Source of the DNA: an uncultured Planctomycetaceae bacterium
GTDB taxonomy: Bacteria > Planctomycetota > Phycisphaerae > SM23-33
Assembly (NCBI GenBank): GCA_964607575.1
Contig: CAZSLS010000002.1
Span: 25,304 to 89,303 of the forward strand
Reading direction: 5' to 3'
DNA: 64,000 nucleotides
Below the pieces are notes generated by a model. The model searched no databases, was not told the origin of the DNA, and saw only the letters and a program-made list of their open reading frames with translations. Positions 11,116 through 49,005 of this stretch are shown piece by piece. The position numbers and the translations under genes were made by a program. Each line of letters opens with the position of its first letter. Positions within the stretch are counted from its first letter, which is position 1.

Positions 11116-11316
11116 CTCGTGTCTCCAGGACCGATGAGGGCATCTGCGGGAGGTAATTTCCAGTTCAAGAATACCAACAACCGCACCGCTAAAACAAGCA
11201 CCGAAACGCGCCGCCGGCCGGTCCGTTGGCGGTTGCGTGCGGATGGAGGGTGTGGTACTTTGCCCGTCGAGGCGCGGCGTGTGAGGCGCCACCGCCACTG
11301 CTATCGGAGAATTGCG

Positions 11317-30612: not shown

Positions 30613-30742
30613 GGGCCTGCCGAGCCCTCCCGAAACGCCGAGTAAGCCCCCCCGACTGCGGGGGGGCTTCTTGGGTTTTCTGCACCGATTGAACCGGCTT
30701 GATGTTCCATAAGAATCCGCATTGACCGAAAGAAGAAGGCAG

Positions 30743-33700
30743 ATGAAGAATTCATCAAAGTTCGTAATAATCGCCGTCACCCTGCTGATGCTGCTTGCCG
30801 CCGGTACGGTCTCCGCCGCCGCGAAACCGCCGACCTTCAGCGGAGCCAACTGGATATGGCACAAGGGCGTCGGCCAGGCCGCGGGCACGTGGTATTTCCA
30901 GAAGGGTATGGCGTTCCCCGCCGGTCAGAAGCCCAAGAAGGCTCATGTTCTCATCACCTGCGACAACCTATGGACGCTGCATGTCAACGGCAAGCAGGTC
31001 GGGCGGAACGACTCGACCGCCGATTCATGGCAGCGCCCCCAAAGCCTCGATGTCGCCAAGCATCTGGTGATCGAGAAGAACGCGATTGCGATTGCAGGCA
31101 CAAACACTGCCCCCGGGCCGTCGGGGCTTCTGGTCAAGCTGGTCGTTGAATTCGAAGACGTCAAGAAGACGTTCGAACTTGTCAGCGACAAGACCTGGAT
31201 CAGCTCATCGAAACCGACCACAGGTTGGAAGGACAACGGTTTTACCGCCGGGCCCGACTGGACGCCTGTCACCGTTGTCGGCGCTTACGGTTCGGCGCCC
31301 TGGGGCAAGCTGGACGGTTCGGCTCGCAGACCGCGAGGCGCTCGGAAACCCGCTCCTTTGCCCGCCGTTCTAGCCGACAAAGAGGAACTCAAGAAACCGA
31401 TCTACAAAGACGGCGTGGTTTTTGTCGGTAGTGCAGTCGGTCTGAACGTGAACCGTCAACCGATCTATCATCAGAACATACGCGGCACGCGCGCATATTT
31501 TGAAATGGACCCGATGACCCCCGCGGCTTTGGGGCGCCAGCTTTGGAGCCTTATACCGCTCGGGCCCGACGGCAAGAAGACGTTGCTGTGCGACGCCGGT
31601 CAGGGAACGGTGGGCTCGCCGAGCGTTTCCTTTGACGGTAAGACGGTCTACTTCACGAAGGTCAAGCCCGGCGAAGCCTTCTTCCATATCTACAAGATCG
31701 ACATGACCGCAAAGGGCGATGCCGCCCCGGGCGGCGAAAAAAGCGTCGTGCAGCTCACCGACGGACCGTTCCACGATTACGATCCGATGGAACTGCCCGA
31801 CGGGCGCATCGCCTTCAGTTCCACTCGCATCGGAAGCCGCGAGGAGTACCATGGGAAATATGCCTCCTCACTCTGGACATACGATCCGAAGAGTAAGAAG
31901 ATTCGTCCGCTGACTTACCACATTGTCGCCGACCGCGAACCGCGCGTCACGTCCGACGGGCAGTTGGCGTTTATTCGGTCCGACAATTTCCTCGAGCGTG
32001 CAAAAGTCGAAGCACATCTGCACCAGACGCGAATGGACGGTACGGCGGGGCAGGTCATTATCGGGCCTGGGCGCAAAGGCGTTCGGCTCGATCGCGATGT
32101 CGCCGCTGAGCCCGCGATGAACTGGCTCCGCAGATACGGTATTGGCAGCCCGGCGCCGATGCCTGACGGGCGGGTGGCCGCAATCAACCAGAGAGGTCTC
32201 GTCACGTCGGCGACGGCTACGGGACTGGATGTCGGAGGCGGATTCCTGCCGTTCGACCTGTCGCCTTTGCCCGACAGTCGGTTGTTATGCACCGCCAGAG
32301 CAAAGAATCAGATCATAGTTTTCGACCCGAAGGACAAGAGTCAAAAGGGTGTCTTCTCGATGAACGGTATTCATTCGGTGGTTCACCTCGGCGCTCGCAA
32401 GAAACCGTCGGTCATGCCCTCAATGGTGGACCCCGCGATCGAACGCAGCATTAGCAAGACGGGTTTTCTGTACTGTCAGAACGTCCTGAACACCCAGCAC
32501 ACTTCCGCCGACACAAAACGCATCAAGGCTATCCGAGTTTACGAAGGGCGACCGTTTACGATCGAGCCGACCAAGGCCATCTATGTCCACATCGGAACCG
32601 TCGGTATTGAGTTGGGGACCGTACCGCTGGCGAGCGACGGTTCGTTCTATATTGAAGTCCCCGCAGACCGCCCGCTGGCACTGCAGGCGATCGACGGCGA
32701 GGGACGAGCGGTCATCAACGAGCTGTCGTGGATTTACACCCGCCCGGGCGAACAGAGGGCGTGCGTGGGTTGTCACGCCCCGGTCGACGCCGCTCCGAGC
32801 ATGACGCCGGCCAAGGCGATGAGAAGCAGACCGCTGAAGCTGACCGGGCAGGGCGCCCCGCACCGCTTCAGGGCCAACAACGGCGCCAACGGCGGAATCG
32901 TAAACCTGCAACTGGACAAGTTCCGCGAGGTTGTCGGGATAAACCTCAATACCGTTCCGAATGATGCGAGCCTCTCGACGATTCGTCGACTGGGAATACT
33001 CCGCAACCGATCGTCGATCCCGATTCTGGTAAAGGCGCTGGGCGACAAGAGCCCCGAGATGCGCTGCGCCGCGGCGCTTTCGCTTTCGGCGTGCGGTAAT
33101 CGCGATGCGATCAAGCCGCTTATGATATCGCTGAAAGACACAAATCCCACCGTGGCACGCGCCGCGGCCTGTGCGCTGGAGCATCTGACGGGCAACCCCG
33201 CCGGCGGGACCGATTTCTACGCGATTGAAAAGGCCCTGATTGGCAAGATCTCGCCGGAGAATCAGCTTACCGGGACGGCGGCGCCGGTCAAAAAGAGAGC
33301 TCCGAAGATCATTATCAAGTCGGCGCTTTACGGCGTCAAGGGCAAGCCCTCCAGGCAGGTTGATCTGACAAAGAAGATCAGCAAGCGGGTTGCCGCCGGG
33401 AAGTTCACGTTTAGCGCGAGTCACAAGTTCGCAGGCAAGGATCCCGCCCCGGGTATCAACAAGACAACGGAGCTTGAATATTCCATCAACGGGAAGCTCA
33501 AGAAAGCCTCGCTCAGAGAGGGCGCCGAGTTTGATCTGGTCCTGGGCAACATAGCGGGGCCCGGCTCGGTCAGCAGCAAAAGCGGGCAGGAAATCCACAT
33601 GGCGATTGAGGCTCTGGGTCACGTGGGCGGTAATGCGGGCAAGAAGGCAATTCGTGATTGGCTGGCGAGCAATCCCAAGGGCGAACTCCGGATGCTGATG

Positions 33701-34795
33701 GCGGCGATACGCTCACTCGGTTATCTGCAGGACCGCCAGGCGATACCCGACCTCGTGGCGATCATGAATGCTAATCTGAATAAGCGCGGAAAGGGCGGTT
33801 GGAATGAAGGGGGTTTCAACCAGAAGCCGACGTATCTGTGCGCTACGGCCGCCGAGGCACTCGGCAGGATCGGCGGAGCCGAAGTGGAAAAAGCGATTCT
33901 GGCGGCGCTGGCGAAACTGGGCAATTTCGAGTTGCAGGTAATGCGCACCGGCGAGCACGGATGGTTGAGAAGCGCCCAGGCCTCGCCGGGCTACTTCCGG
34001 ATGCTCGAGGCGCTGGAACGCATGGGAAGCAAAGCCGGCGGCGAATTGGCCGGGCCGATCGTGATCTCGATTCCGGTGGACAAGGACCGCGGACTGCTGT
34101 ACGAACTGGACAGTTATGAAAAGCTGGTCGGGCGGACGGTCAAACGCATCGGGCAGATGGACAACGTTGTTGAAGCGTGTTTCGCGGTACTGGACAAGAC
34201 GTCGAAAGCGGCGGTCGACCCCAAGTTGAAGGCCGCGGTATCAAAAGCCCCGCACAACGAGCGCCATATCAGGAGGCTTTCGGCCCAGTCGCGGGCGGCG
34301 CAGGTTATGTCGGTTGTGTGCATGGACCTGAAGTACGCCGACAGGATCAGAAAAGTGCTGAAGACCTACCGGGCCGACAAACCGTCGGAAACCCGCGCAT
34401 GGACTTGCTTCATGCTGACGCGAACCCTCGGGCGGATCGGCGATACCGGATCGATCGACCTGTTCGTAGAGATGCTGACAAAGGATCCTACGGAAACCGC
34501 GCTGGGCCTGAACCCGCCGCCAACCCACATTATCTACAAGGCCTGGCGACCATTCTATCGCCCCGCCGCCGCATGGTCTCTCGGACGGCTCAAAGCCAAG
34601 AAGGCTACCGGCGCTTTGCTCAAGGCGGTGCAGGAATTGGAAAATGCGTCGAGCACGCGCCAGGAATCCGCGATAGCACTCGGGATGATCGCCGACAAGA
34701 CCACCCTGGCCGAACTGAAGAAGATCGCCGAAGAATACCCCGAACTCATGACCAGACGATCGCTCCTGGAGGCAATCGCGAAGATGTCGAAGTAG
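30743..34795 (+). CDS. Secreted paralogue: N-terminal jelly-roll-like domain, PD40-type propeller, one CxxCH motif, then HEAT/armadillo repeats
   Basis: The start is set at MKNSSKFVIIAV…, with GAAGGCAG upstream. CVGCHAPVD is present. HEAT-like repeats run …SIPILVKALGDKSPEMRCAAALSL…AIKPLMISLKDTNPTVARAAACAL… onward. It shares the …LYGVKGK…DLTKK…ELEYSINGK… mini-domain with 27760..30612. Confidence 0.6.
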   Translation: MKNSSKFVIIAVTLLMLLAAGTVSAAAKPPTFSGANWIWHKGVGQAAGTWYFQKGMAFPAGQKPKKAHVLITCDNLWTLHVNGKQVGRNDSTADSWQRPQSLDVAKHLVIEKNAIAIAGTNTAPGPSGLLVKLVVEFEDVKKTFELVSDKTWISSSKPTTGWKDNGFTAGPDWTPVTVVGAYGSAPWGKLDGSARRPRGARKPAPLPAVLADKEELKKPIYKDGVVFVGSAVGLNVNRQPIYHQNIRGTRAYFEMDPMTPAALGRQLWSLIPLGPDGKKTLLCDAGQGTVGSPSVSFDGKTVYFTKVKPGEAFFHIYKIDMTAKGDAAPGGEKSVVQLTDGPFHDYDPMELPDGRIAFSSTRIGSREEYHGKYASSLWTYDPKSKKIRPLTYHIVADREPRVTSDGQLAFIRSDNFLERAKVEAHLHQTRMDGTAGQVIIGPGRKGVRLDRDVAAEPAMNWLRRYGIGSPAPMPDGRVAAINQRGLVTSATATGLDVGGGFLPFDLSPLPDSRLLCTARAKNQIIVFDPKDKSQKGVFSMNGIHSVVHLGARKKPSVMPSMVDPAIERSISKTGFLYCQNVLNTQHTSADTKRIKAIRVYEGRPFTIEPTKAIYVHIGTVGIELGTVPLASDGSFYIEVPADRPLALQAIDGEGRAVINELSWIYTRPGEQRACVGCHAPVDAAPSMTPAKAMRSRPLKLTGQGAPHRFRANNGANGGIVNLQLDKFREVVGINLNTVPNDASLSTIRRLGILRNRSSIPILVKALGDKSPEMRCAAALSLSACGNRDAIKPLMISLKDTNPTVARAAACALEHLTGNPAGGTDFYAIEKALIGKISPENQLTGTAAPVKKRAPKIIIKSALYGVKGKPSRQVDLTKKISKRVAAGKFTFSASHKFAGKDPAPGINKTTELEYSINGKLKKASLREGAEFDLVLGNIAGPGSVSSKSGQEIHMAIEALGHVGGNAGKKAIRDWLASNPKGELRMLMAAIRSLGYLQDRQAIPDLVAIMNANLNKRGKGGWNEGGFNQKPTYLCATAAEALGRIGGAEVEKAILAALAKLGNFELQVMRTGEHGWLRSAQASPGYFRMLEALERMGSKAGGELAGPIVISIPVDKDRGLLYELDSYEKLVGRTVKRIGQMDNVVEACFAVLDKTSKAAVDPKLKAAVSKAPHNERHIRRLSAQSRAAQVMSVVCMDLKYADRIRKVLKTYRADKPSETRAWTCFMLTRTLGRIGDTGSIDLFVEMLTKDPTETALGLNPPPTHIIYKAWRPFYRPAAAWSLGRLKAKKATGALLKAVQELENASSTRQESAIALGMIADKTTLAELKKIAEEYPELMTRRSLLEAIAKMSK

Positions 34796-36276: not shown

Positions 36277-37680
36277 TCATTTCCTCTTGACGTCATAACA
36301 ATACAGTTTGTTGAAGTGACGCAGATATAGTTTACCGCCGGCGACGACGGGGTGGGCCCAACTGGTGCCCATGGTGCGTTTGTATTCTTTAGTCCATCCG
36401 GATTTATCGGCAAAACCTTCGGCGAAGAAACGCCCTTTGATCTTGAAGCCCTTGGGGGTGCATTCGCACAGGAGCGTTTCGCCGGCTTCTTCGGCGAAGA
36501 CATAGAACATACCGTCTGCCCAGCAGACCGAACCCTTCGGAATATTCTCGACGTCTTCGTCCAGGTCGTTGGAGTCCCACATGGTCTTGCCCGTTTTGAA
36601 ATCGATACAGGCGAAACCTCTCTTGTTGTTACCGTATAGATAACCCTTGTGCAGGATCATACCGCCGTGATGACAGTCGGCGTCTTTGGTCTCCCATGCC
36701 TTCTTTGCGAAGACCTTTTGACCTTTGGCCTTCATTTTCAGGCAGATCCCGCCCTTACCGTATCCGCATGCCCAGAAGACGTGCCCATCGGAGTAGATCG
36801 GTGTATTGCAGTTGGCCATGTTGCCTTTGGCGAATTCATATTTCCAGAGTCCCTTGCCTGTTTCAGCGTGAACGCCCATGAGTCCCTCGCGGCTGCCGTT
36901 GACGAGCATGGGAACGCCGTCGACATCGCCAAGAATGGTCGAACCGTATTGGCTTTGCCCGTTCGGAGGCGATTTCCACAGCGTCTTGCCCGTCATCTTG
37001 TCTAATGCGACCATAAAGGTCTTCTCGCCGCCGGTGCAGTAGATGGCTTTGTCTTTATAGATCAGGACCGATTCGGCGTAGCCCCAACCGTGTCCGACAA
37101 CACCGCTGTCGAATTCTTTTTCCTGAACCTTGCGCGTCCAGATGCGCTGGAAGGTATCCTTCTTCAGGCACATGATTTCGCCCAGACCGGTGGTGACGTA
37201 CAGGCGATCTTTCTCGATAGTGATGCTGGCGCGCGTGCCCTTGTAGGAGAGGTTTTCGTGGCGGCCGTCGGGATGGATCTTTTCGTAATACGCATTGGCG
37301 ACGTCTTTCGATTGCTTCACTTTGCCCGTGGCGTAGTCGATAGTGGTGACGTAAAAGCCCTGGCCCTTGATCTGCCAAATGTGCTTCGGAGGCGTTTTGT
37401 ATTCGATCTTCTCGTCCGCGTGCGGTTTGCGACCGGTGATGTAGGCCAACCCGCCATCAAGCGTGACGCTCGAGTAGCCATTGCCGATACCTTTGACTTC
37501 CCACAGTTTTTTCGGACCGCCTTTGGGCCAGCTCTTGAGCAGACCGGTATCGGTCGATTTGCTATCGCGGTTCGGACCGCGCCATTGTTTCCAATCGCCC
37601 TCGGCGCCCGGAGACCTGCCGGCGATCAGAACAGCAAACACAACAACCGCCAACGGCGACAACAGACGTACTGACTTCAT
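36277..37680 (-). CDS. Secreted PQQ-like (BamB-like) beta-propeller repeat protein
   Basis: Signal MKSVRLLSPLAVVVFAVLIAG is present. …WKQWRGPNRDS… is the typical opening. Repeated …TGK.LWK… and …TGKTMWDS… blades follow. The start is set at ATG 37680 with GAGGTG 9 nt upstream. Confidence 0.7.
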   Translation of the reverse strand: MKSVRLLSPLAVVVFAVLIAGRSPGAEGDWKQWRGPNRDSKSTDTGLLKSWPKGGPKKLWEVKGIGNGYSSVTLDGGLAYITGRKPHADEKIEYKTPPKHIWQIKGQGFYVTTIDYATGKVKQSKDVANAYYEKIHPDGRHENLSYKGTRASITIEKDRLYVTTGLGEIMCLKKDTFQRIWTRKVQEKEFDSGVVGHGWGYAESVLIYKDKAIYCTGGEKTFMVALDKMTGKTLWKSPPNGQSQYGSTILGDVDGVPMLVNGSREGLMGVHAETGKGLWKYEFAKGNMANCNTPIYSDGHVFWACGYGKGGICLKMKAKGQKVFAKKAWETKDADCHHGGMILHKGYLYGNNKRGFACIDFKTGKTMWDSNDLDEDVENIPKGSVCWADGMFYVFAEEAGETLLCECTPKGFKIKGRFFAEGFADKSGWTKEYKRTMGTSWAHPVVAGGKLYLRHFNKLYCYDVKRK

Positions 37681-37893
37681 AACATACACCTCGTAATAAT
37701 AATACTAGCACAAAACGGACACCTTAATCCACCAAACGCACGGGGCGGTCGGCTCGGTCCCTACCTTAGGGATTCAGTTCGTCGGTACAATGCTTAATTA
37801 TTGGATTGCGGCTACACTGTACGTGATGCTAAGCTGTCTTCATGCTGAGAATAGCGAGAAAGGAGACTCCGGATCAACGGACTTGAACGATAT

Positions 37894-39082: not shown

Positions 39083-40027
39083 ATGACCAGAAAACTAGTA
39101 ATATTCATAGTGTTATTGTCCGCCGCCTTGCTCGGAAGGGCTGCGGACGTACCGAAAAAACAAGTATCCCAATTCAAATCCATCGCAAGAGCCAGCGAGG
39201 ACATTACCGTATCCTCCACCATGCCGGTTCGGGTCTCGAAAGTCTTTGTCAAAGATGGAGACACCGTAAAGCCCGGACAAACACTGGTGCAACTCGACGA
39301 CAAGGCCGAACGCGTTCAGATGGAACAACTGAAAGCACAGGCCGAAGACGAAACGCACCTGGAGGCCGCGGAAGCACAACTCGCCCAGAAGAAAGTCGAT
39401 TACAAACGAATCCAAAATGCCCGGGCCAAGAACGCCGCAACCGCACTGGAACTGGAGCACGCGCGCCTGGAGGTCACGATCTCAGATCTGTCCCTGACGC
39501 TGGCGCGGTTCGAACACACCCAGGACAAACGGAAGTACCTGCAGGCCGAGGCCCAGGTCGATCGATTGAGACTGCGCGTACCTACTTCCGAAAACGATTT
39601 GCCCGGGGACACGTTCAAGGTCTTCAAAGTCTTCGTTTCTCGCGGCGAGTCCGTCGATCGCCTGAAGGAAGTTATCCGGGTCATCAAGATCGATCCGCTC
39701 TGGATCGACGTCCCGGTCCCCGAAGAGATCGTCGGTGCACTGAAACTCAAGGTCGCCCAGAAAGCACGCGTGATCTTCCTCAAGACCAAGACCCTCCCGA
39801 CCGAGGGCAAGATCATCTACATTGCGGATGAGATCGATGCGGCCAGCGGAAAGCAAACGATACGTGTTGAGGTCCCAAATCCCAGCGGAATACCCGCCGG
39901 TAAGAAAGTATTCGTAGAATTTTTACCAAAGGCCCGGTCGACAACCAGACCTGCCGACAAGAAGCAGGCCGCCAATCCCACGGCAGACCGGACAGAAATA
40001 TCGATTAACAGGAAAGGAACGAGTTGA
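39083..40027 (+). CDS. HlyD-family periplasmic adaptor (membrane fusion protein), signal-anchored
   Basis: MTRKLVIFIVLLSAALLGRA is a signal. …VKPGQTLVQLDD… is a biotin-lipoyl hairpin, followed by a long coiled coil (…QMEQLKAQAEDETHLEAAEAQLAQKKVDYKR…) and a beta-barrel-type C-terminus. Confidence 0.75.
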   Translation: MTRKLVIFIVLLSAALLGRAADVPKKQVSQFKSIARASEDITVSSTMPVRVSKVFVKDGDTVKPGQTLVQLDDKAERVQMEQLKAQAEDETHLEAAEAQLAQKKVDYKRIQNARAKNAATALELEHARLEVTISDLSLTLARFEHTQDKRKYLQAEAQVDRLRLRVPTSENDLPGDTFKVFKVFVSRGESVDRLKEVIRVIKIDPLWIDVPVPEEIVGALKLKVAQKARVIFLKTKTLPTEGKIIYIADEIDAASGKQTIRVEVPNPSGIPAGKKVFVEFLPKARSTTRPADKKQAANPTADRTEISINRKGTS

Positions 40028-40398
40028 TGGCCAAAGACACCCCCGAACCGGCACAAGACGCCCCACAGGCGGCGCCTGAAGCAGCACCCGAAGGTCAGGA
40101 ACAGCAGACGATCCGAGTTCGCATGGACCAGCGGGATGTAAAAACCAGCTACGCAAACGCGTTCAACACGCACGGGCTTATCAACGAGGTCATCCTTGAC
40201 TTCGGACTGAACACGCCCGTTCCACCCCAACCCGATCAACCGCCGGAAATCATGCTGCAGATCACCGACCGGATCATCCTGAACTACTACTCCGCCAAAC
40301 GCCTCGCCCTTACGCTCGGGCAGTTGGTCAGGCGACATGAAGAACGATTCGGAGAACTGGAACTGGATGACAGCAAGCGGGTCAAGAGCGACCAGTAG
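40027..40398 (+). CDS. DUF3467-like small protein
   Basis: This is a 123-aa protein. …YANAFNTHGLINEVILDFGLN… matches the DUF3467 core motif. It has a Pro/Ala-rich acidic N-terminus. Its start overlaps the upstream stop (TGATG). Confidence 0.55.
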   Translation: MAKDTPEPAQDAPQAAPEAAPEGQEQQTIRVRMDQRDVKTSYANAFNTHGLINEVILDFGLNTPVPPQPDQPPEIMLQITDRIILNYYSAKRLALTLGQLVRRHEERFGELELDDSKRVKSDQ

Positions 40399-40424: not shown

Positions 40425-42452
40425 ATGCCCCCAGACAACGTGGAAAGCTCCAGACCGCAGCCACAGCCGCATGACGGTCAACTGCCTACATTGGCTGAAC
40501 TCTTCGAACAGCTAAGCCGCTATGACGGCCCGGTGGAGGGTTTTCTTGCGCACCTCGTGCAAACCCAATGCCAGGCCGCCGACGCCAGGGGCGGTGCGAT
40601 ACTGCGAATCTCCCCGGACGGGCGCCCACAGGTTCTGGCGGTATACCCCCCCGCCGAGCCGGGATCAACGCCTCCGGTCTGGTTGGCGCGCGCCGCTGAG
40701 ATCGCGCCGCAGGTAGCGGCGGGAGGCGCCACCGATGTCAGGGCGCTGCACGATCCCGACGATCTCTACGGCCAGCCCGCGCGGAGCCACCTGGCGCTGG
40801 TGCCTTTGACCGGCGGGCAGGGAGCCAGGGGATTGGCTGCGTACGTACTCGAAAAAGGCGACGATGAAGCCGTTTTCGCCGCACGAATCGAACGCCTCGA
40901 GCTTACCATCGTCCTGATGGGGCTCCACGAAATGCGCCTCTCGCTGCAAAGACGAAATAACGATCTTGCGAGGCTCAGGGTCTCCATGGACACCCTGGCA
41001 GCAACTAACGAACACGAGAAGTTCACCGCCTCGGTCATGTCGCTCTGCAACGAAATGGCGTCAACCTGGAAGTGCGAGAGAGTCAGCCTCGGAGTACTGA
41101 AGGGGCGATACGTTCAGGTCAGCGCCGTCAGCGGTACCGAAAAAATCAACCGCAAGATGAAACTGGTCCAGGACATCGAAGCGACTATGGAAGAGGCGCT
41201 GGACCAGGATATCGAAGTGATCCTGCCCGCATCTCCAGAGGCGACCTATGTCAGCCGCGGCGCATCGGAACTCTCCCGCAGGCACGGGCCCTCGGCAATC
41301 GTCTCGCTACCGCTCAGGCGAGAGGGCAAGGGCGTCGGTGTAGTCACGCTGGAGAAGTCCGCCGACAATCCGTTTACCGCCGAACAGATCGAAGCTCTGC
41401 GATTGACCTGCGAACTGGCCACCCCCAGGATTATGGACCTGTTCAAGACCGACCGCTGGTTCGGGGCTAAGGCCGCCCGGACCGTGCGCGGCGGACTGGG
41501 CGTAGTTGTTGGCGCCAAACACACGTGGCTGAAGATGATCGCCATACTCGTATCCGCTTTCCTGGTATTTGCGATCCTGTTCAAGGGAGACTACACCGCC
41601 GGCGGTAGCATGACCCTCCAGGTGAGAACCCAGCACGTTATTCCCGCACCGTTCGAAGGGGTCCTCAAGAGTGTACACGTGGAAGTCAACGAGAGGATCG
41701 TCGGCGAAGGGGCGCCAGGCGTGACGATCCTGGCGGAAATGGACACCGCCGAACTGCGGGAGCGCCTCGCTGCAGCGCAAGCCGAACGCAGCCGGGCGAG
41801 AAATCAGGCGGAGCAGGCCAGGAATGAAGGCAAACAGGTTCAGGTCCAGATTGCAGAGAATGACGTCCAGAAAGCCGACGCCAATATCCGCCTCCTCCAG
41901 CAGCGTATTGCCCTGGCTTCGATCAAGTCGCCCATATCCGGTACGGTCATCAGCGGAGACCTCAAGAGGCATCTTGGGCGGCGCTACGAACTGGGTAAGG
42001 AGCTTTTCCAGATCGCCAAGATCGAGAACATGCGCGCCGAAGTGCTCGTGGGCGAAGACCAGATCGCCGAAGTAATAGAGAAATATGGTCCCAGTTGCAG
42101 GAAACGCAACAAAATCCAACAGGAACTCGACAATCTTGGCAACGAAAATCCCGACAGACGCCGGAAACTCGAAAACCAGATCGCCGAACTCGACAAGGAC
42201 GTAGGAGGCCGCCTAGCCGCGCTGGGGCACGCGGGGAGGCATTTTGATTTTGTAGTCGAACGAATCACACCGGTCGCCAGACCCTCGGAAGGGAAAAACG
42301 TCTTTCCGATTCGCGTCAAACTGCTCCAGACCTCCCAGTGGATGCGACCGGGCATGACCGGCGTGGCGGAGGTAGATATCGATCGCCGCCCGTACGCCTA
42401 CATCTGGACGCGCCGGTTGGTTAACTGGATCCGGATGAAGTTGTGGTTGTAG
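40425..42452 (+). CDS. GAF-GAF-TM-HlyD fusion: cytoplasmic tandem GAF-like sensor domains joined by one TM helix to a periplasmic membrane-fusion (HlyD-family) domain
   Basis: The first ~350 aa carry two GAF-like units (…GGAILRISPDGRPQVLAVYP…LALVPL…GLAAYVLEKG… and …CERVSLGVLKGRYVQVSAVSG…AIVSLPLRREGKGVGVVTLEK…). The TM is HTWLKMIAILVSAFLVFAILF. Then comes …VLKSVHVEVNERIVGEG…, a coiled coil (…ELRERLAAAQAERSRARNQAEQARNEGKQ…) and …IKSPISGTVISGDLK…. Confidence 0.65.
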   Translation: MPPDNVESSRPQPQPHDGQLPTLAELFEQLSRYDGPVEGFLAHLVQTQCQAADARGGAILRISPDGRPQVLAVYPPAEPGSTPPVWLARAAEIAPQVAAGGATDVRALHDPDDLYGQPARSHLALVPLTGGQGARGLAAYVLEKGDDEAVFAARIERLELTIVLMGLHEMRLSLQRRNNDLARLRVSMDTLAATNEHEKFTASVMSLCNEMASTWKCERVSLGVLKGRYVQVSAVSGTEKINRKMKLVQDIEATMEEALDQDIEVILPASPEATYVSRGASELSRRHGPSAIVSLPLRREGKGVGVVTLEKSADNPFTAEQIEALRLTCELATPRIMDLFKTDRWFGAKAARTVRGGLGVVVGAKHTWLKMIAILVSAFLVFAILFKGDYTAGGSMTLQVRTQHVIPAPFEGVLKSVHVEVNERIVGEGAPGVTILAEMDTAELRERLAAAQAERSRARNQAEQARNEGKQVQVQIAENDVQKADANIRLLQQRIALASIKSPISGTVISGDLKRHLGRRYELGKELFQIAKIENMRAEVLVGEDQIAEVIEKYGPSCRKRNKIQQELDNLGNENPDRRRKLENQIAELDKDVGGRLAALGHAGRHFDFVVERITPVARPSEGKNVFPIRVKLLQTSQWMRPGMTGVAEVDIDRRPYAYIWTRRLVNWIRMKLWL

Positions 42453-42464
42453 GAGACGCATATC

Positions 42465-44729
42465 ATGCCAATCGACCGCCCCACATTCAGTGAATCGTGG
42501 TATCGCGTCGCTTCGTTGCGACCGCGCCTGCGGTCGTCGGTCCAGGTATTCCGCCAGCACTTCCGCGGGCAGATGTGGCATGTCCTGCAGGACCCGGGAT
42601 CCAACCAGTTCTTCCGACTGAACGACACGGGCTATCATTTTGTCGGTCTGCTCGACGGGCGGCGAACGGTTGCGGAAGTCTGGAACGTGTGCAACGAACA
42701 ACTCGGCGACGCGGCGCCGACCCAGGGCGAAGCGATCGCACTGCTGGGGCAGTTGTACACCTCCAACCTGCTCCAGGCGGATGTACCACCGGATGCCCAG
42801 GGCCTGTTTCGGCGTTACCGACAGCGAGTGGGACGGGAAGTAAGGGGATACCTCACGAACCTCCTGTTCATCCGGATACCCCTGATCGACCCCGACAGAT
42901 TCCTCGAACGATGGGTTGGTGTATTCGGCGCGATATTCAGCATAGTCGGCTTGATATGCTGGTTGATCCTGATGTCGGTAGGCGCCTACTTCCTGCTCGG
43001 GCGGACCAGCGAACTGGGCAACCAGGCCATGGGCGTCCTGATGACCGCAAACCTGCCCCTGCTGGCGATAAGTTTCTGGATTGTCAAGATCATCCACGAA
43101 TTCGGGCATGGTTTTGCGTGCAAGAAGTTCGGGCTACAGGCCGGCGGAGGTGAGGTCCATACGATGGGCATCATGTTCCTGATCTTCATGCCCCTGCCCT
43201 ACGTCGACGCGTCAAGCGCCTGGGCGTTTCGGAGCAAGTGGCATCGCGTGGCGGTCGGAGGCGCCGGGATGTTCTGCGAACTGGCGATCGCGGCGGTTGC
43301 GGCGATTGTGTGGGCAAGTGTCGGTGAGGGCATGGTCCAGGCGCTGGCGTATAACTGCATGTTCATCGCCTCGGTGACAACGCTTCTGTTCAACGCCAAT
43401 CCGCTGCTGAGGTATGACGGGTACTACATCCTCTCGGATCTGCTGGAGATACCCAACTTCGCCCAGCGGTCCAAAAGCTACCTGTACTACCTGGTCAAGC
43501 GATACATATGGGCCGTACGCAATCCCAGGAACCCCGCAAACACTTCCGGCGAAAAAGCATGGTTCGTATTCTACGGGATCGCCTCGACTATCTACCGCCT
43601 GTTCATCCTGGTCGTGATCCTGATGTTCCTGTCCGACCGCCTTCCGGAGGAACTCAAGTTCATAGCCACCATCGCCGCGGCGGTATCCGGAGCCGTCTGG
43701 TTGTGTACTCCGATATTCAAGTTCCTCAAGTACCTGGCGACCAGCGGCGAACTTTCCCGCGTTCGAGGCCGCGCGGTAACCTCAACGCTGCTGACGGTGA
43801 CAAGCATCATCCTGCTCGTTGGCGTCATACCCTGGCCCGACCGCGTACGCGCCGAAGGTGTTGTCGAACCGCTCGGACTGGTAGTCGTGTACACTCGAAC
43901 CGACGGATACGTTGCAAACTTCCTCCCCTCGGGAACGCCGGTGGGCGCCCGGGACGTGCTCATAAACGCCGTACCGCCTACCGACGACCCGCGGCAGCGA
44001 AACCGGTTCTTCGATAGTCTGAACACTGAACTGACCGCCACACAGCAGATCCTGGAAGCCGAATACGCCAAGATAAAATGGCAGGAAGATTGGGCTCTCG
44101 CCGAAAACGAACACGCAATCGTAGCCTCGAGAATCGAAGAGGCAAAAGCCAAAGCAGAGCAGATCCATCGGGTCAGGAACGATATCAGAAACCTGACGAT
44201 CCGATCGCCGATAAAGGGTGTGTGGATATCCCCCGACGTTGACCGCCTCAAGGGCAATTTCGTGCAAAAGGGTCAGCAAATCGGACTGGTCGCCAACCGG
44301 GAACCCGAAAACCTGGTTGTCCGGGCGGTAGCATCGCAGGAGATCGGGGCGCTTCTTTACGAACTTCACAACAGGAAAAACCACACGATCCCCGTCGAAA
44401 TCCGCATACAAGGACGTCCCGCCCCGGCATTCACGGGCAAGATAATCAAGATCCTCGACTCCGCACAGGACGTCCTGCCCTCCCCGGCGCTGGGATACGC
44501 CGTAGGCGGACCGATTGTCACTCGCTCCGACGACCGCCAGGGCCTGATGGCCGCCGAGGGCTTCTTCGAAATACACGTTACCCCACAGACCGATGATTCC
44601 GGCGACCCGGACGGAGGGGTCCTGCTGCTCCCGGGACAGCGAGTGGTGGTGCGTTTCGACATGCCGTCAAAACCGCTCGTCGCCCAGTGGTGGCGGTCAC
44701 TACTGCAACTGCTTCAGAGAAAACAATAA
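42465..44729 (+). CDS. RRE/PqqD-like N-domain + M50-type (site-2-protease-like) intramembrane zinc metalloprotease + C-terminal HlyD-like domain
   Basis: GGAG sits 10 nt upstream. The N-terminus …VQVFRQHFRGQMWHVLQDPGSNQFFRLNDTGYHFVGLLDGRRTVAEVW… is PqqD/RRE-like. HEFGH lies in a TM helix (…FWIVKIIHEFGHGFACKKFG…). At least five more helices follow. The C-terminus …IRSPIKGVWISPD…KGQQIGLV… is a membrane-fusion beta-barrel/lipoyl region. Confidence 0.7.
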   Translation: MPIDRPTFSESWYRVASLRPRLRSSVQVFRQHFRGQMWHVLQDPGSNQFFRLNDTGYHFVGLLDGRRTVAEVWNVCNEQLGDAAPTQGEAIALLGQLYTSNLLQADVPPDAQGLFRRYRQRVGREVRGYLTNLLFIRIPLIDPDRFLERWVGVFGAIFSIVGLICWLILMSVGAYFLLGRTSELGNQAMGVLMTANLPLLAISFWIVKIIHEFGHGFACKKFGLQAGGGEVHTMGIMFLIFMPLPYVDASSAWAFRSKWHRVAVGGAGMFCELAIAAVAAIVWASVGEGMVQALAYNCMFIASVTTLLFNANPLLRYDGYYILSDLLEIPNFAQRSKSYLYYLVKRYIWAVRNPRNPANTSGEKAWFVFYGIASTIYRLFILVVILMFLSDRLPEELKFIATIAAAVSGAVWLCTPIFKFLKYLATSGELSRVRGRAVTSTLLTVTSIILLVGVIPWPDRVRAEGVVEPLGLVVVYTRTDGYVANFLPSGTPVGARDVLINAVPPTDDPRQRNRFFDSLNTELTATQQILEAEYAKIKWQEDWALAENEHAIVASRIEEAKAKAEQIHRVRNDIRNLTIRSPIKGVWISPDVDRLKGNFVQKGQQIGLVANREPENLVVRAVASQEIGALLYELHNRKNHTIPVEIRIQGRPAPAFTGKIIKILDSAQDVLPSPALGYAVGGPIVTRSDDRQGLMAAEGFFEIHVTPQTDDSGDPDGGVLLLPGQRVVVRFDMPSKPLVAQWWRSLLQLLQRKQ

Positions 44730-44772
44730 CCGGAGTCCGCAATTGAACGAGGTCGCCAGCACAACCTGGCGG

Positions 44773-46743
44773 ATGTTGGCGCAGCGAACGGGCGGTCGAG
44801 AACTGCCTCGCGGACTCGATGCGGCATGGGACGCCGCGGCGGGTATGGCCCAGAAACTCCTTCCGCGAACCGCAAGATTCCTCCGCCAGGCCGACGTGGT
44901 ATTGGGCTACGAGAAGCATTTCGCAATGATGACCGCGGCGAAACTCCGCACCCATGCCGCGGAGTTCCGCGACCTCTTCCGACTGGGACGCAATACATCT
45001 GACGATCTCCTGAAGGCCTTCGCACTCGTCCGCGAGGTCGCCGCCAGGCAGATCGGCCTGAAAGCTTACAGGGTACAGGTCGCCGGGGCACTTGCCCTGT
45101 ACGCAGGATGCATTGTCGAAATGGCCACCGGCGAGGGAAAGACACTCGCCGCAACCATGCCCGCAACCGTTGCCGGATGGTGTGGAAAAGGATGCCACGT
45201 CATCACCGTAAACGACTATCTCGCCAAACGAGACGCCGAGGAAATGGGCCCGATCTACCGCTTCTGCGGACTGAAGGTCAACCATATCGATCAGGAAACA
45301 CCGCCCCCGCAGCGCCGCGAAGCATACCACGCCGACATCACATACTGCACCAACAAGGAAGTCACCGCCGATTACCTGCGAGATCGCCTGGCCATGGGAC
45401 GCTTGAGGGGGCTTTCGTCGGCGTTGCTGGCACGCATCGCCGAGGGCACCCAGAGCGGGACCGATCGAGTAGTACAACGCGGTCTGAACTACGCGATCAT
45501 CGATGAAGCCGACTCGGTGCTGATAGACGAAGGCGTCACGCCGCTGATCATCTCGGGAGAGGCGCCCAATACCGAGCAGGTACAAGCATTTCAGCAGGCG
45601 GCGGGCATCGCCGGGCAAATGCAGGATGGCGTCCACTACCGGGTTAACTTCAAGTATCGCGAGGTCAACCTCACCAAGGACGGAAAAGCCTTCGCAGCCG
45701 AACTGACCGCCGAACTGGGAGGCATATGGGCCGGACAGCGGAGAAGCGAGGAATTGATCGTCCAGGCACTGACGGCACGGGAAATGTTCCTGATCGACAA
45801 GCAGTACGTTATCCAGGAAGACAAGGTCGTGATCGTCGACGACTTCACCGGGCGGCTCATGCCCGACCGCGAATGGCGAGACGGGCTGCACCAGGCGGTA
45901 TCCGCCAAAGAAAACGTCGAAGTACAACCGCCAAAAGACACCTACGCGCGGATGAGTTTCCAGAGATTCTTCAGGATGTATCGACGCCTGTCAGGCATGA
46001 CCGGAACCGCGGTCGAAGCCACTGGAGAATTCTGGCAGTTCTACCACACGCCGGTGGTGGTCGTTCCGACCAACGAACCCTGCATACGCAAGCAACTGCC
46101 CTCCCGCGTCTACGCCTCCCAAACCGCCAAGTGGCACGCCGTCATCGATGAAATCACGCGCGTCCACGAGAAAGGCCAGCCCATTCTCGTCGGCACGCGC
46201 AGCGTCCGCGACAGCGAAAAAATCTCCGCACTGCTCACGGAACTCGAACTGGAACATGAAGTACTCAACGCCGTCAGGCACGCTGAAGAAGCCCAAATCG
46301 TAGCCCAGGCCGGGCAAGGCGGACGAATTACCGTGGCGACCAACATGGCCGGACGCGGTACCGACATCAAACTCGGTCGCGGTGTGGCCGATCTCGGCGG
46401 CTTGTACGTCCTGGCCACCGACCGCCAGGAGTCCGGGCGGATCGACAGACAACTCGCCGGACGGTCCGGACGGATGGGCGACCCGGGCCTGGCGCGCAGA
46501 TTCGTGAGCCTCGAAGACGATCTGCCCAAGCGCTACGCGTTGAAGATGGCGAAATTCCTGCGCAAACGCCACCGCGATGGCGATGAGAGAATCGCCCGAG
46601 ACATCGCCGGACCGCTAACCAGACGCCTCTTCAACCGCGCGCAGCGACGAGCCGAACATACCGCTTTCAAGCAGCGGCGCGCCGTCCTGCGCACCGACCA
46701 CTGGCTCGACGAGTACCTGGGCTTCGCCGGAATCGAGCGATAA
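44773..46743 (+). CDS. SecA-like motor ATPase lacking the C-terminal third (NBD1-PPXD-NBD2 retained; most of HSD and all of HWD/CTL absent)
   Basis: …MATGEGKTLAATMPA… is Walker A. …HVITVNDYLAKRDAEEMGPIYRFCGLKV… is the SecA signature. …ITYCTNKEVTADYLRD… and …AIIDEADSVLIDE… (DEAD) are present. …MTGTAVEATGEFWQFYH…VVVPTNEPCIRKQLPSRVY…GQPILVGTRSV…TVATNMAGRGTDIKLG…LATDRQESGRIDRQLAGRSGRMGDPG… follows. The protein ends about 60 aa after motif VI. An alternative in-frame TTG start lies at 44743. Confidence 0.75.
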   Translation: MLAQRTGGRELPRGLDAAWDAAAGMAQKLLPRTARFLRQADVVLGYEKHFAMMTAAKLRTHAAEFRDLFRLGRNTSDDLLKAFALVREVAARQIGLKAYRVQVAGALALYAGCIVEMATGEGKTLAATMPATVAGWCGKGCHVITVNDYLAKRDAEEMGPIYRFCGLKVNHIDQETPPPQRREAYHADITYCTNKEVTADYLRDRLAMGRLRGLSSALLARIAEGTQSGTDRVVQRGLNYAIIDEADSVLIDEGVTPLIISGEAPNTEQVQAFQQAAGIAGQMQDGVHYRVNFKYREVNLTKDGKAFAAELTAELGGIWAGQRRSEELIVQALTAREMFLIDKQYVIQEDKVVIVDDFTGRLMPDREWRDGLHQAVSAKENVEVQPPKDTYARMSFQRFFRMYRRLSGMTGTAVEATGEFWQFYHTPVVVVPTNEPCIRKQLPSRVYASQTAKWHAVIDEITRVHEKGQPILVGTRSVRDSEKISALLTELELEHEVLNAVRHAEEAQIVAQAGQGGRITVATNMAGRGTDIKLGRGVADLGGLYVLATDRQESGRIDRQLAGRSGRMGDPGLARRFVSLEDDLPKRYALKMAKFLRKRHRDGDERIARDIAGPLTRRLFNRAQRRAEHTAFKQRRAVLRTDHWLDEYLGFAGIER

Positions 46744-47330
46744 TGGCCCCGGCACGCCCATTTGAGCTGGTCATCTTCGACATGGATGGAACGCTGATCG
46801 AGCAGATGCTCGACTTTGAGGGTATACGTAAGCACCTTGGGATCCGCCCGAACGAGGGCATACTCGAAGGAATCGCAAACATGCCGCCCGATCGGCGGAC
46901 CCAGGCCGAACACTGGCTCGTGCGAACCGAACACCTGATCGCCCAAAACGCTCGTCTCATGCCCGGAGCCATTGAAACTCTGGCGGCGATCCGCAACGCG
47001 AATATCCAAACCGCCCTGTTGACCAGAAACACGCGAGCATCGATGCAAACGGTCCTAGAGAAGTTCGACCTCCGGTTCGACCTGGCCTGGTCGCGAGAAG
47101 ACGGACCGATCAAGCCCGAGCCCGACAGCGTCCTGAAGGCGTGCGAGACGCTCGGCGTCGCCCCGGGACAAACCGCGTGCATAGGCGATTTTGAATACGA
47201 TATCGTCGCCGCCAACGCCGCCGGCGCCGTTAGCATCCTCCTGGTCCCGGACTCCAGACCCCCATTCGCCGATACCGCCGATCGCGTCATAATCAAACTG
47301 TCTGAACTACCCGCCCTGCTGGGAATCTGA
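46743..47330 (+). CDS. HAD-superfamily hydrolase (phosphatase-like, subfamily IA type)
   Basis: Motif I is VIFDMDGTLIE. …LLTRNT… and …CIGDFEYDIVAANAAGA… are motifs II-IV. The start overlaps the SecA-like stop (TAATG). Confidence 0.7.
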   Translation: MAPARPFELVIFDMDGTLIEQMLDFEGIRKHLGIRPNEGILEGIANMPPDRRTQAEHWLVRTEHLIAQNARLMPGAIETLAAIRNANIQTALLTRNTRASMQTVLEKFDLRFDLAWSREDGPIKPEPDSVLKACETLGVAPGQTACIGDFEYDIVAANAAGAVSILLVPDSRPPFADTADRVIIKLSELPALLGI

Positions 47331-47430: not shown

Positions 47431-49005
47431 ATGAAATCCGCTTTCATATTTGCTGCCCTTGTCGCACTGCTTTCGTCGGCCCGCGCCGGGGAAAACGACT
47501 GGCCTCAATGGGGGCGAACCGACGACCGCAATATGGTCTCAGACCAGAAGAACCTCCCCGATCTCGGTAAGGGGAAAATCGCTTTCAAGAACGCTAAATG
47601 GGACATTCGCTGGACCGTCAAGCTCGGATCGCTGTGCTACGGGAACCCGACCGTCTCAGGCGGAAAAGTTTTCATCGGCACAAACGATCGGTTCTGGTCC
47701 GATCCTCGCGCCAAGCGAAACCGAGGCGGGCTGCTGCTGTGCATTGACGACGTCACGGGCAAAGTGCTGTGGCGCCTGCTCGTACCGCGATACAAGAAGA
47801 AGGTCTACGGCAGCGGATTCGACGACCTGAATGTCGGGGTCTGCTCGGCGGTAACCGTCGAGGGCGACAAGGCGTACGTTGTAAGCAACCGCGCCGAAGT
47901 ACTCTGCCTCGATGTCAACGGGCAGGCCAACGGTAATGACGGGCCGTATCGCGGCGAAGGTAAGTATATCGCCGGGCCCGCCAAGCCGCCGGTAAAACTC
48001 TACCGCGGCGACGGCGATATCATCTGGCGATTCGACATGATCGGCGGCCTGGAAAACGCACCGCACGATGCGACGAACTGCAACATCCTGATCCACGGAG
48101 ACCTGCTGTACGTCAACACGGGCAACGGCGTCCATCGCATGCCCGACGAGCCCATGCCCAAACCCGATGCGCCAACTCTGATCGTGCTGAACAAGAAGAC
48201 CGGCAAGCTGGTGGCCCAGGACGGATGCAGAATCGGTCACCGAACGTTCCACGGTAACTGGTCGTCGCCGTCGCTGGGCAAGGTCGGAGGCAAGGAGCAG
48301 ATCTTCTTCGGCGGCGGAGACGGCGTCCTCTACGCATTTGCGCCCCCGAAGGTGAATCCCAAAGCCGACAAGCCGGTGGTCTTTAAATCCGTCTGGAAGT
48401 ACGACTGCAATCCCAAGGGCTACAAAGTCGACGCCGACGGTGAGGAACTCGACTATTGGGACGGTGACGCATCCCGCGCCGAGGTGACCAAGAGCTACAA
48501 GGGGCAGAGCGAAATAATCGCCACGCCCGTCTTCTACAAGAACCGCGTTTACGTGGCCATCGGACGTGATCCCGAACACGGAATCGCACGGGGAATGCTC
48601 CACTGCATCGACGCGACGAAAACCGGCGACGTAACCAAGGCCGCTCGCATCTGGTCGTACGACAAGATAGCACGCACAATGTCGACGGTCGCCATCGCCG
48701 ACGGGCTGCTCTACATCTCCGACTACGCGGGGTTAGTCCACTGTCTCGACGCCGAAACGGGCAAGGTCTGCTGGGTCCACAACACCGGCGAGCGGATATG
48801 GAGTTCGACCCTGGTCGCCGACGGGAAGGTGTACGTAGGCACGGAGAAGAAGCACCTCTTCATATTCAAGGCCGGCCGCAAAAAGCAGCTCGTCGCGACG
48901 ATCAGGATGCCATACAAAATCTCGACCACGCCGATAGTGGCCAATGGATGTATCTACGTTCCCACCGCCCGGTGCCTCTACGCGGTCGGCAAGCTGAAGA
49001 AGTAA
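47431..49005 (+). CDS. Secreted PQQ-like (BamB-like) beta-propeller repeat protein
   Basis: Signal MKSAFIFAALVALLSSARAG is present. …DWPQWGRTDDRNM…, …TGKVLWRL…, …TGKLVAQD… and …TGKVCWVH… blades follow. Confidence 0.7.
   Translation: MKSAFIFAALVALLSSARAGENDWPQWGRTDDRNMVSDQKNLPDLGKGKIAFKNAKWDIRWTVKLGSLCYGNPTVSGGKVFIGTNDRFWSDPRAKRNRGGLLLCIDDVTGKVLWRLLVPRYKKKVYGSGFDDLNVGVCSAVTVEGDKAYVVSNRAEVLCLDVNGQANGNDGPYRGEGKYIAGPAKPPVKLYRGDGDIIWRFDMIGGLENAPHDATNCNILIHGDLLYVNTGNGVHRMPDEPMPKPDAPTLIVLNKKTGKLVAQDGCRIGHRTFHGNWSSPSLGKVGGKEQIFFGGGDGVLYAFAPPKVNPKADKPVVFKSVWKYDCNPKGYKVDADGEELDYWDGDASRAEVTKSYKGQSEIIATPVFYKNRVYVAIGRDPEHGIARGMLHCIDATKTGDVTKAARIWSYDKIARTMSTVAIADGLLYISDYAGLVHCLDAETGKVCWVHNTGERIWSSTLVADGKVYVGTEKKHLFIFKAGRKKQLVATIRMPYKISTTPIVANGCIYVPTARCLYAVGKLKK

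Follow-up and report, generated by a model that had tools for sequence, protein, structure and literature searches.

In a 64,000-nucleotide (nt) stretch of the genome of an uncultured Planctomycetaceae bacterium of the lineage Phycisphaerae (contig CAZSLS010000002.1, positions 25,304 to 89,303), hereafter the window, a gene for a short, motor-only SecA protein is the last of a module of five genes on the plus strand. The genes, in the order HlyD, DUF3467, GAF-HlyD, PqqD-M50-HlyD and short SecA, follow each other with 1-nt overlaps or with gaps of 12-26 nt. A scan for promoters and terminators between 37600 and 51500 gave results at the level of chance (4 found versus 4.4 expected; 17 versus 16.5), so the limits of the operon are drawn from gene spacing. 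An earlier note on this DNA had placed the gene in an operon of membrane-fusion proteins. Three such partners are indeed present, but the note had overlooked one gene, that for DUF3467, and had not recognised the protein encoded upstream of secA as a PqqD-M50 protein.

The short SecA and its end point

The longest reading frame of the secA gene (44593-46743) overlaps the upstream gene, whose stop codon is at 44729; therefore, the realistic starts are TTG at 44743 and ATG at 44773, the two candidates that the earlier note had named. Translation probably starts at the TTG, 30 nt 5′ of the ATG. We prefer it because GGAG lies 7 nt 5′ of it, because the ten codons from the TTG to the ATG (LNEVASTTWR) are kept as protein in four relatives (L001-L004 in our numbering of related loci), because the homologue in L016, which is 67% identical, has an ATG exactly at the position of the TTG (MSSVPSTTWRML), and because PSTTWRMLA is part of the consensus of the short-SecA family.

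The open reading frame (ORF) had been described as carrying the motifs of the SecA motor and a preprotein cross-linking domain (PPXD), and we located all of them. In the numbering of the 656-amino-acid (aa) product that begins at ATG 44773, the Walker A sequence GEGKT is at 120-124, VNDYLAKRD at 146-154, DEAD at 244-247, TNMAGRGTDI at 523-532 and motif VI, GRSGRMGDPG, at 563-572. Pfam confirmed SecA_DEAD at 35-421 (336 bits), SecA_PP_bind at 269-376 (91 bits) and P-loop_SecA from 436 (193 bits); neither SecA_SW nor SEC-C was matched. The protein is built of nucleotide-binding domain 1 (NBD1), PPXD, NBD2, a long scaffold helix and then a C-terminal motif, DxWLDEYLGFAG, and its C-terminal end reads ...DHWLDEYLGFAGIER. 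NBD1 also holds about 20 inserted residues (positions 219-239 in the 666-aa numbering, GRLRGLSSALLARIAEGTQSG) for which canonical SecA has no counterpart. The insertion is kept in the consensus of the Phycisphaerae-type family and is of low confidence in the structural model described below.

Motif VI is followed by 84 residues and not by about 60, as had been stated before. In local alignments, homology extends to residue 603 of 841 in Bacillus subtilis SecA and to about residue 600-614 in an 831-aa canonical SecA (P0217). The truncation point was taken from these local alignments because a global MAFFT alignment misplaced the last residues of the query, setting them at the ends of the canonical SecAs. 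P0217 has Pfam matches to SecA_SW at 569-778 and to SEC-C at 813-831. Since homology ends at about 600, the short SecA retains about 46 of about 210 wing/scaffold residues. Its segment AQRRAEHTAFKQRRAVLRTD aligns with canonical AQKRVEGNNFDxRKxLLxYD, which belongs to the long scaffold helix. The chain ends roughly where the wing domain would begin, and about 217 C-terminal residues are gone. With them are gone the wing domain, the two-helix finger with intramolecular regulator of ATPase 1 (IRA1), the last scaffold helix, the linker and the SEC-C zinc motif. The earlier claim that the wing domain and the zinc-binding tail are missing is correct, while the loss of the scaffold domain had been overstated, as the long scaffold helix is retained in the local alignments.

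In SecA, the two-helix finger is the element that inserts into SecY, and IRA1 restrains the ATPase (PMC3101351). SecA mutants that lack IRA1 show a raised basal ATPase activity that is independent of preprotein (PMC3101351). With neither IRA1 nor the finger, the short SecA should be a deregulated motor in need of another dock.

Every NCBIfam model for SecA or SecA2 matched only over its first 600 positions or so, and all scores were far under the cut-offs. For the canonical SecA models PRK12904 and TIGR00963, the scores were 636 bits (cut-off 814) and 631 bits (cut-off 800). For the SecA2 models TIGR03714, TIGR04221, TIGR04397 and NF012136, they were 565 bits versus 1085, 536 versus 930, 461 versus 725 and 448 versus 1100. 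An AlphaFold2 model of the protein had a predicted local distance difference test (pLDDT) value of 75.7. In the model, only the first long scaffold helix is present, and the chain has a final 35-residue helix at 624-658. The model fits SecY-engaged B. subtilis SecA (6itc and 5eul) with template modelling (TM) scores of 0.77-0.78 over 618 columns. The engineered Escherichia coli SecA-N68 (PDB 5k9t) was also among the fold-search matches, at rank 17.

The short form is highly conserved. All 120 of the listed homologues (65-100% identity), which come from Phycisphaerae and Planctomycetota metagenome assemblies, are 639-678 aa long. An exhaustive search was made over 1.84 billion 50%-identity representatives, and the best 150 were considered. 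Of these, 130 were in the length bins of 625-700 aa; canonical-length SecAs turned up only from about 480 bits down. The aligned representatives terminate 0-4 residues from the C-terminus of the query, and homologues with identities as low as 38%, from hundreds of independent assemblies, share this end point. In an alignment of 49 sequences, the residues of Walker A, DEAD and motif VI are invariant, as are V648, L649, D652, W654, L655, D656, L659, G660, F661, A662 and G663 near the C-terminus. Judged by these alignments, the motor is intact and under selection. In a rough neighbour-joining tree without support values, 133 short sequences, the query included, formed one clade that excluded nine of the ten canonical-length sequences, although the mean identities within and between the groups hardly differed (0.43 and 0.41).

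A sequencing or assembly artefact, or a pseudogene in decay through a recent nonsense mutation, has a negligible probability. Both are ruled out by the conserved end point, by the invariant C-terminal motif and by the downstream gene, which overlaps the secA stop codon. The earlier note had considered that the stop at 46741-46743 might be artefactual, and this is not so, as relatives share its position. The gene is probably not the housekeeping secA, and it is not a pseudogene. To call it a paralogue, as the note did, presumes a canonical secA elsewhere in the genome; no second secA was found in the window.

The module and its neighbours in other genomes

The short SecA belongs to a family known since 2015. 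Kamneva, Poudel and Ward (PLoS One 2015) described 'secondary SecA_DEAD domain proteins', defined as SecA_DEAD proteins in which SecA_SW is absent or a small fragment, in a locus related to type I secretion systems (PMC4452313). The partners in that locus were Peptidase_M50-like/HlyD, HlyD/biotin-lipoyl and GAF/HlyD proteins and sometimes OEP, and the authors proposed that the SecA-like ATPase, in place of an ABC energiser, drives a type-I-like system in which the M50 protein may be the pore (PMC4452313). The text of that paper mentions none of PqqD/RRE, DUF3467, SapC, Phycisphaera or giant LEPR-XLL proteins, and the Phycisphaera lineage may be newly recorded here for the family. Its members are inconsistently named in public annotation: the short SecAs of L007, L008, L010, L011 and P0113 appear there under the names 'prepilin peptidase', 'DEAD/DEAH box helicase', 'translocase' and 'hypothetical protein'.

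We compared the gene context of related loci. L001-L004 are near-identical Phycisphaerae loci; their synteny covers the whole region, so they are uninformative on linkage. L005 is a canonical actinobacterial SecA of 963 aa, and the contigs of L020 and L023 are too short for gene context. In two Phycisphaerae-type loci at 67-68% identity (L015 and L016), the order HlyD, (DUF3467), GAF-HlyD, PqqD-M50 and short SecA is kept while the flanks are completely different. The core of the module was also found at 38-47% identity on alphaproteobacterial plasmids (L006-L011) of Pseudosulfitobacter (two loci), Methylosinus, Mesorhizobium, Alisedimentitalea and Pontibrevibacter, and, further, in the gammaproteobacterium Parendozoicomonas and in metagenome contigs (the set L021, L022, L024 and L026). 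Of the 17 related loci with context, 16 have an M50-type gene as the immediate upstream neighbour of the short SecA gene. The three types of partner (M50/HlyD, HlyD/biotin-lipoyl and GAF/HlyD) were all found in 15-16 of the 17. Wherever a related locus carries an M50 gene and its sequence reaches far enough upstream, a GAF-HlyD gene lies upstream of that M50 gene. The module is a conserved unit across lineages while its flanks differ.

Genes for candidate further parts of a trans-envelope system are present in some of these loci. TolC/OEP genes adjoin the module in six of them (L007, L012, L021, L022, L024 and L026), and SapC-family genes (PF07277) are inside or beside it in L010, L019 and L023. 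Among the scanned ORFs of the window, neither OEP/TolC nor SapC was found. No ABC transporter was found in the module, in the window or in the related loci.

These data bear on a SecA2-like reading of the short SecA, in which this accessory motor would still serve the general SecYEG channel and export a few proteins with signal peptides, the HlyD and M50 neighbours acting at a later step or being unrelated. SecA2 models scored nearly as high as SecA models, the PPXD and the long scaffold helix are retained, the structural model superimposes best on SecY-bound conformations of SecA, and Kamneva et al. placed the clade of secondary SecAs beside actinobacterial SecA2 (PMC4452313). However, every SecA2 model was far under its cut-off and the finger that inserts into SecY is gone. 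Moreover, secY2 and asp genes were not found among the neighbours of the short SecA gene, the lineage is Phycisphaerae, and a linkage to M50, GAF-HlyD and HlyD genes (with TolC in relatives) that spans phyla favours one machine. We consider a SecA2-like role unlikely.

In 10 of the 11 non-planctomycete short-SecA loci with context, a large or giant gene adjoins the module. A Thalassospira module that lacks the short SecA gene (L012) likewise adjoins a very large gene. These neighbours are those of L006-L012, L022 and L024-L026, the N-termini having been examined as L013, L014 and L017-L019. Complete annotated giant coding sequences are 12.1-38.8 kb long and encode up to about 12,900 aa; one neighbour is complete at 2,818 aa, and three are cut by the end of the locus at >3,400-5,400 aa. 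Every large neighbour protein has the N-terminal LEPR-XLL motif (NCBIfam NF012209), either with scores of 27-34 bits (cut-off 17) or as read directly or from NCBI annotation. In L025, the stop codon of the 2,818-aa LEPR-XLL gene overlaps the start of the short SecA gene. The LEPR-XLL giants carry Ig-like, LamG and calcium-binding domains of the adhesin type, which imply an extracellular location.

For L019 (Alisedimentitalea scapharcae NZ_CP123586.1, near 183224-183300), the LEPR-XLL motif lies in an in-frame upstream extension, ...VVEQLEPRLLLAAD, and the annotated start of this 24-kb 'calcium-binding protein' gene is probably too far downstream.

A link between the module and LEPR-XLL proteins was not found in PMC4452313 or in the literature searched for LEPR-XLL, LEPR-8K and LEPRxLL. 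In Chlorobium chlorochromatii, SapC and TolC flank the two giants, which have LEPRxLL N-termini, and a horizontally acquired secA is present in the genome; the authors draw no link between these observations (bioRxiv 10.64898/2026.03.19.712371).

The other genes of the module in the window

Coordinates and domains of the genes are in Table 1. The ORF of the small HlyD protein opens at TTG 39005. Homologues match it only from residues 10-23, and its start is likely the ATG near 39083, which would give the N-terminal anchor MTRKLVIFIVLLSAALL. The ATG of the DUF3467 gene overlaps the HlyD stop codon (TGATG). This gene recurs within the module in Phycisphaerae and Alphaproteobacteria as a frequent, not universal, accessory. 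Its predicted fold of four strands and a long helix gave no match in the PDB, and a literature search on DUF3467 found nothing relevant.

Table 1. Short SecA gene and adjoining genes in the window
Feature	Coordinates	Strand	Description
Small HlyD/RND-type membrane-fusion protein	39005/39083..40027	+	HlyD_D23, HlyD_3, Biotin_lipoyl_2; RND_mfp 83.5 bits
DUF3467 protein	40027..40398	+	123 aa; PF11950, 50.5 bits; absent from the list of the earlier note
GAF-HlyD protein	40425..42452	+	675 aa; cytoplasmic GAF, one transmembrane segment at 368-386, periplasmic membrane-fusion domain (HlyD_D23/HlyD_3)
PqqD(RRE)-M50-HlyD protein	42465..44729	+	754 aa; PqqD 39-103, M50/site-2-protease-like polytopic domain, HlyD-like tail
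Short (motor-only) SecA	44743..46743	+	666 aa from TTG 44743 (preferred), 656 aa from ATG 44773
HAD-family hydrolase	46743..47330	+	ATG overlaps the SecA stop codon (TAATG)

The 754-aa protein encoded directly upstream of the short SecA gene is a candidate for both the inner-membrane component and the leader peptidase, as far as its sequence features can tell. Pfam gave 31.5 bits for PqqD, a domain also known as the RRE, and a weak match to Peptidase_M50. The protein has HEFGH at 211-215 and, further downstream, the second site-2-protease motif as NANPLLRYDG. Hydropathy predicts at least six hydrophobic segments at 146-455; the C-terminal part after them, about 300 aa long, is a periplasmic coiled-coil/HlyD-like domain, and homologues are annotated as HlyD family. 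The best curated match was the daptide intramembrane metalloprotease NF041824 (160.6 bits versus a cut-off of 300, covering model positions 1-364 of 379), and the epipeptide metalloproteases YydH/LiaK were also among the best. Distant homologues of the M50-like domain (23-29% identity) occur on plasmids of Azospirillum, Cupriavidus, Burkholderia, E. coli and Citrobacter. They are annotated as HlyD-family adaptors and were not among the short-SecA matches, so M50-HlyD fusions may form a wider family, of which those linked to SecA would be a subset.

The fusion of a PqqD/RRE domain to a site-2-type protease, and its curated matches to daptide and epipeptide enzymes, raise the possibility of a system for ribosomally made peptides that are modified after translation (RiPPs). 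In it, the RRE-M50 protein would remove the leader of a small peptide, HlyD would export the peptide, and the SecA-like ATPase would energise export or unfold the precursor. In daptide biosynthesis, site-2 intramembrane peptidases fused to an RRE cut N-terminal RiPP leaders (daptide paper). Against such a pathway, neither a small precursor ORF nor a modifying enzyme was found in the module in the window, the adjacent gene in relatives encodes 2,800 to about 12,900 aa, and the NCBIfam daptide score is about half of the cut-off. Small-peptide maturation has, in our judgement, a low probability.

The HAD gene is absent 3′ of the short SecA gene in L015, L016 and the proteobacterial loci. It is probably co-transcribed with the short SecA gene here and lies outside the conserved module.

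Elsewhere in the window, PF18582, the middle domain of the hydrazine synthase alpha subunit, was detected in four large ORFs (53-1807 on the plus strand, 19235-22159 on the minus strand, and 27760-30612 and 30722-34795 on the plus strand), combined with PD40, HEAT or 3-keto-disaccharide hydrolase domains. PQQ-like beta-propeller proteins are encoded at 7924-11634, 36277-37689 and 47431-49005. The PF18582 and PQQ-like proteins together look like an expanded paralogous set.

A dedicated exporter and its comparison with known systems

On balance we lean towards the reading that the short SecA is the ATP-driven motor of a dedicated, envelope-spanning exporter that works outside the general Sec pathway. 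We hold with the same modest preference that this exporter would be a tripartite system of the TolC type, in which an M50-like membrane protein and a SecA-type motor replace the ABC transporter. The support comes directly from the domain content and catalytic motifs, the conserved truncation, the gene order, the HExxH and NPxxxDG motifs, the predicted topologies and the adjacency of LEPR-XLL, TolC and SapC genes in relatives. Because the module in other bacteria adjoins genes of giant surface proteins, the short SecA is probably the power source of a dedicated export route, not of general secretion. The earlier note had arrived at a specialised ATPase rather than the housekeeping translocase; scores below the cut-offs, the lost parts that contact SecY and SecB, and the conserved module support this, and Kamneva et al. 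(PMC4452313) drew the same conclusion in 2015.

From this evidence we infer the energising role, the docking, the direction of transport and the recognition and cleavage of a leader, as follows. The PqqD(RRE)-M50-HlyD protein, the GAF-HlyD protein and the small HlyD adaptor would form an inner-membrane platform. Their periplasmic membrane-fusion domains would connect it to a TolC-type channel in the outer membrane, which in this genome would be encoded outside the window. The short SecA has lost the two-helix finger that inserts into SecY, along with its wing domain and the tail that binds SecB and the ribosome. With its pair of RecA-like domains, its PPXD clamp and its long scaffold helix, it could still bind an unfolded polypeptide and step along it. 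It may attach to the platform from the cytoplasmic side, with the invariant DxWLDEYLGFAG as a possible contact; this C-terminal motif, which has low confidence in the monomer model, is a candidate docking element. The motor would feed the substrate N-terminus first. The RRE domain would recognise an N-terminal leader, and the M50 active site may cleave it. In the proteobacterial relatives, the substrate would almost certainly be the adjacent large or giant LEPR-XLL protein. In the Phycisphaerae genome studied here, it would be encoded outside the window.

The RRE-fused proteases of daptide biosynthesis cut N-terminal leaders, and by analogy the LEPR-XLL motif may serve as a leader to be read and cut. 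In the most complete version of this reading, the short SecA, RRE-M50-HlyD, GAF-HlyD, HlyD, TolC, DUF3467 and SapC proteins would make up a distinct pathway that exports LEPR-XLL giants N-terminus first, with the LEPR-XLL leader read by the RRE and cut by M50 and with the SecA motor in place of the ABC transporter. The window would hold a planctomycete version whose substrate is encoded elsewhere. We regard this version as a real possibility that falls somewhat short of probable.

Several observations weigh against the proposed exporter. All seven Planctomycetota loci, the window included, are without an adjacent LEPR-XLL gene, giant gene or TolC gene. The window has no ORF longer than 1,357 aa, and no LEPR-XLL-like motif was found near the start of any of its sizeable ORFs. 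The link to the substrate is therefore extrapolated from other phyla. L012 (Thalassospira marina pCSC3H3, NZ_CP024200.1 198067-220028), with the order LEPR-XLL gene/DUF3467/GAF-HlyD/M50-HlyD/HlyD/TolC, is without a short SecA gene; the motor may not always be needed, or its gene may lie elsewhere. We know of no precedent for an M50-type protease that forms a protein-conducting channel. In canonical SecA, the PPXD and the scaffold helix help to bind SecY; both are retained here and may allow an interaction with SecYEG. The AlphaFold2 model is of low confidence over its first 39 and last 16 residues. No experimental work on any member of the short-SecA family was found in the literature searched, and in the only expression data found, those from Methylobacterium extorquens AM1, the SecA, M50 and HlyD genes are silent in exponential growth (PMC4452313).

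The intact zinc-protease motifs, the GAF sensor domain and a motor without a channel-inserting finger could also be explained by a protease for signalling or quality control. Here the SecA motor would be an unfoldase that feeds the M50 site under control of the GAF sensor, comparable to regulated intramembrane proteolysis or to AAA+ pairs. However, three periplasmic membrane-fusion domains and the recurrent TolC in relatives are hallmarks of a trans-envelope conduit, and the adhesin-type domains of the adjacent LEPR-XLL giants imply an extracellular location. A protease complex of this kind is very unlikely.

To our knowledge, the transport of proteins of 10,000-36,000 residues across two membranes in bacteria is largely unexplained. 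The secondary SecA family is the only case known to us in which a SecA-type motor seems to have left SecY for a TolC-type conduit. Should the LEPR-XLL link be true, it would name a machine and a candidate signal for the export of giant proteins, and both could be tested in culturable Alphaproteobacteria. The annotation is also corrected: the start of the gene is probably 30 nt upstream, and the gene is the last of a five-gene module to which a DUF3467 gene has been added.

The short SecA shares 41-43% identity with canonical SecA of E. coli and B. subtilis across NBD1, PPXD, NBD2 and the long scaffold helix, and all helicase motifs are common to both. It differs in sitting in a different operon and in scoring under the NCBIfam cut-offs. 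SecA-N68 is described as a laboratory truncation that removes the C-terminal helical domains (PMC5603524). The short SecA is a natural counterpart of such a C-terminally truncated SecA, but it retains the long scaffold helix, has its own conserved C-terminal motif and is a conserved product of evolution that has dedicated partners.

Giant proteins of Omnitrophota and Actinobacteria contain an internal SecA_DEAD domain and PPXD, without scaffold and wing, that have been proposed to serve their own export (bioRxiv 10.1101/2023.11.21.568195). These domains and the short SecA are both tied to giant proteins and both lack the full scaffold/wing region. The former are highly divergent motors fused within the giant, whereas the short SecA is a separate 666-aa protein in a HlyD/M50 module. 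For the daptide RRE-dependent leader peptidase of the MpaP type, the likeness is to the 754-aa protein, which has the same fusion of PqqD/RRE to a metalloprotease with HExxH and NPxxxDG but scores under the cut-off, in a module without genes for a small precursor or modifying enzymes.

With type I secretion (HlyB-HlyD-TolC), the module shares periplasmic membrane-fusion proteins and, in relatives, an adjacent channel of the TolC family, and the huge, repetitive adhesin-like proteins of the relatives recall the giant RTX adhesins. It differs in being without an ABC transporter, the candidate inner-membrane part being an M50-like protease fused to an RRE and a HlyD-like domain, and in a candidate signal that is N-terminal (LEPR-XLL) rather than C-terminal. 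The secondary SecA_DEAD proteins have the same domain content as the short SecA, the same three types of partner and an overlapping range of phyla, which includes Planctomycetes.

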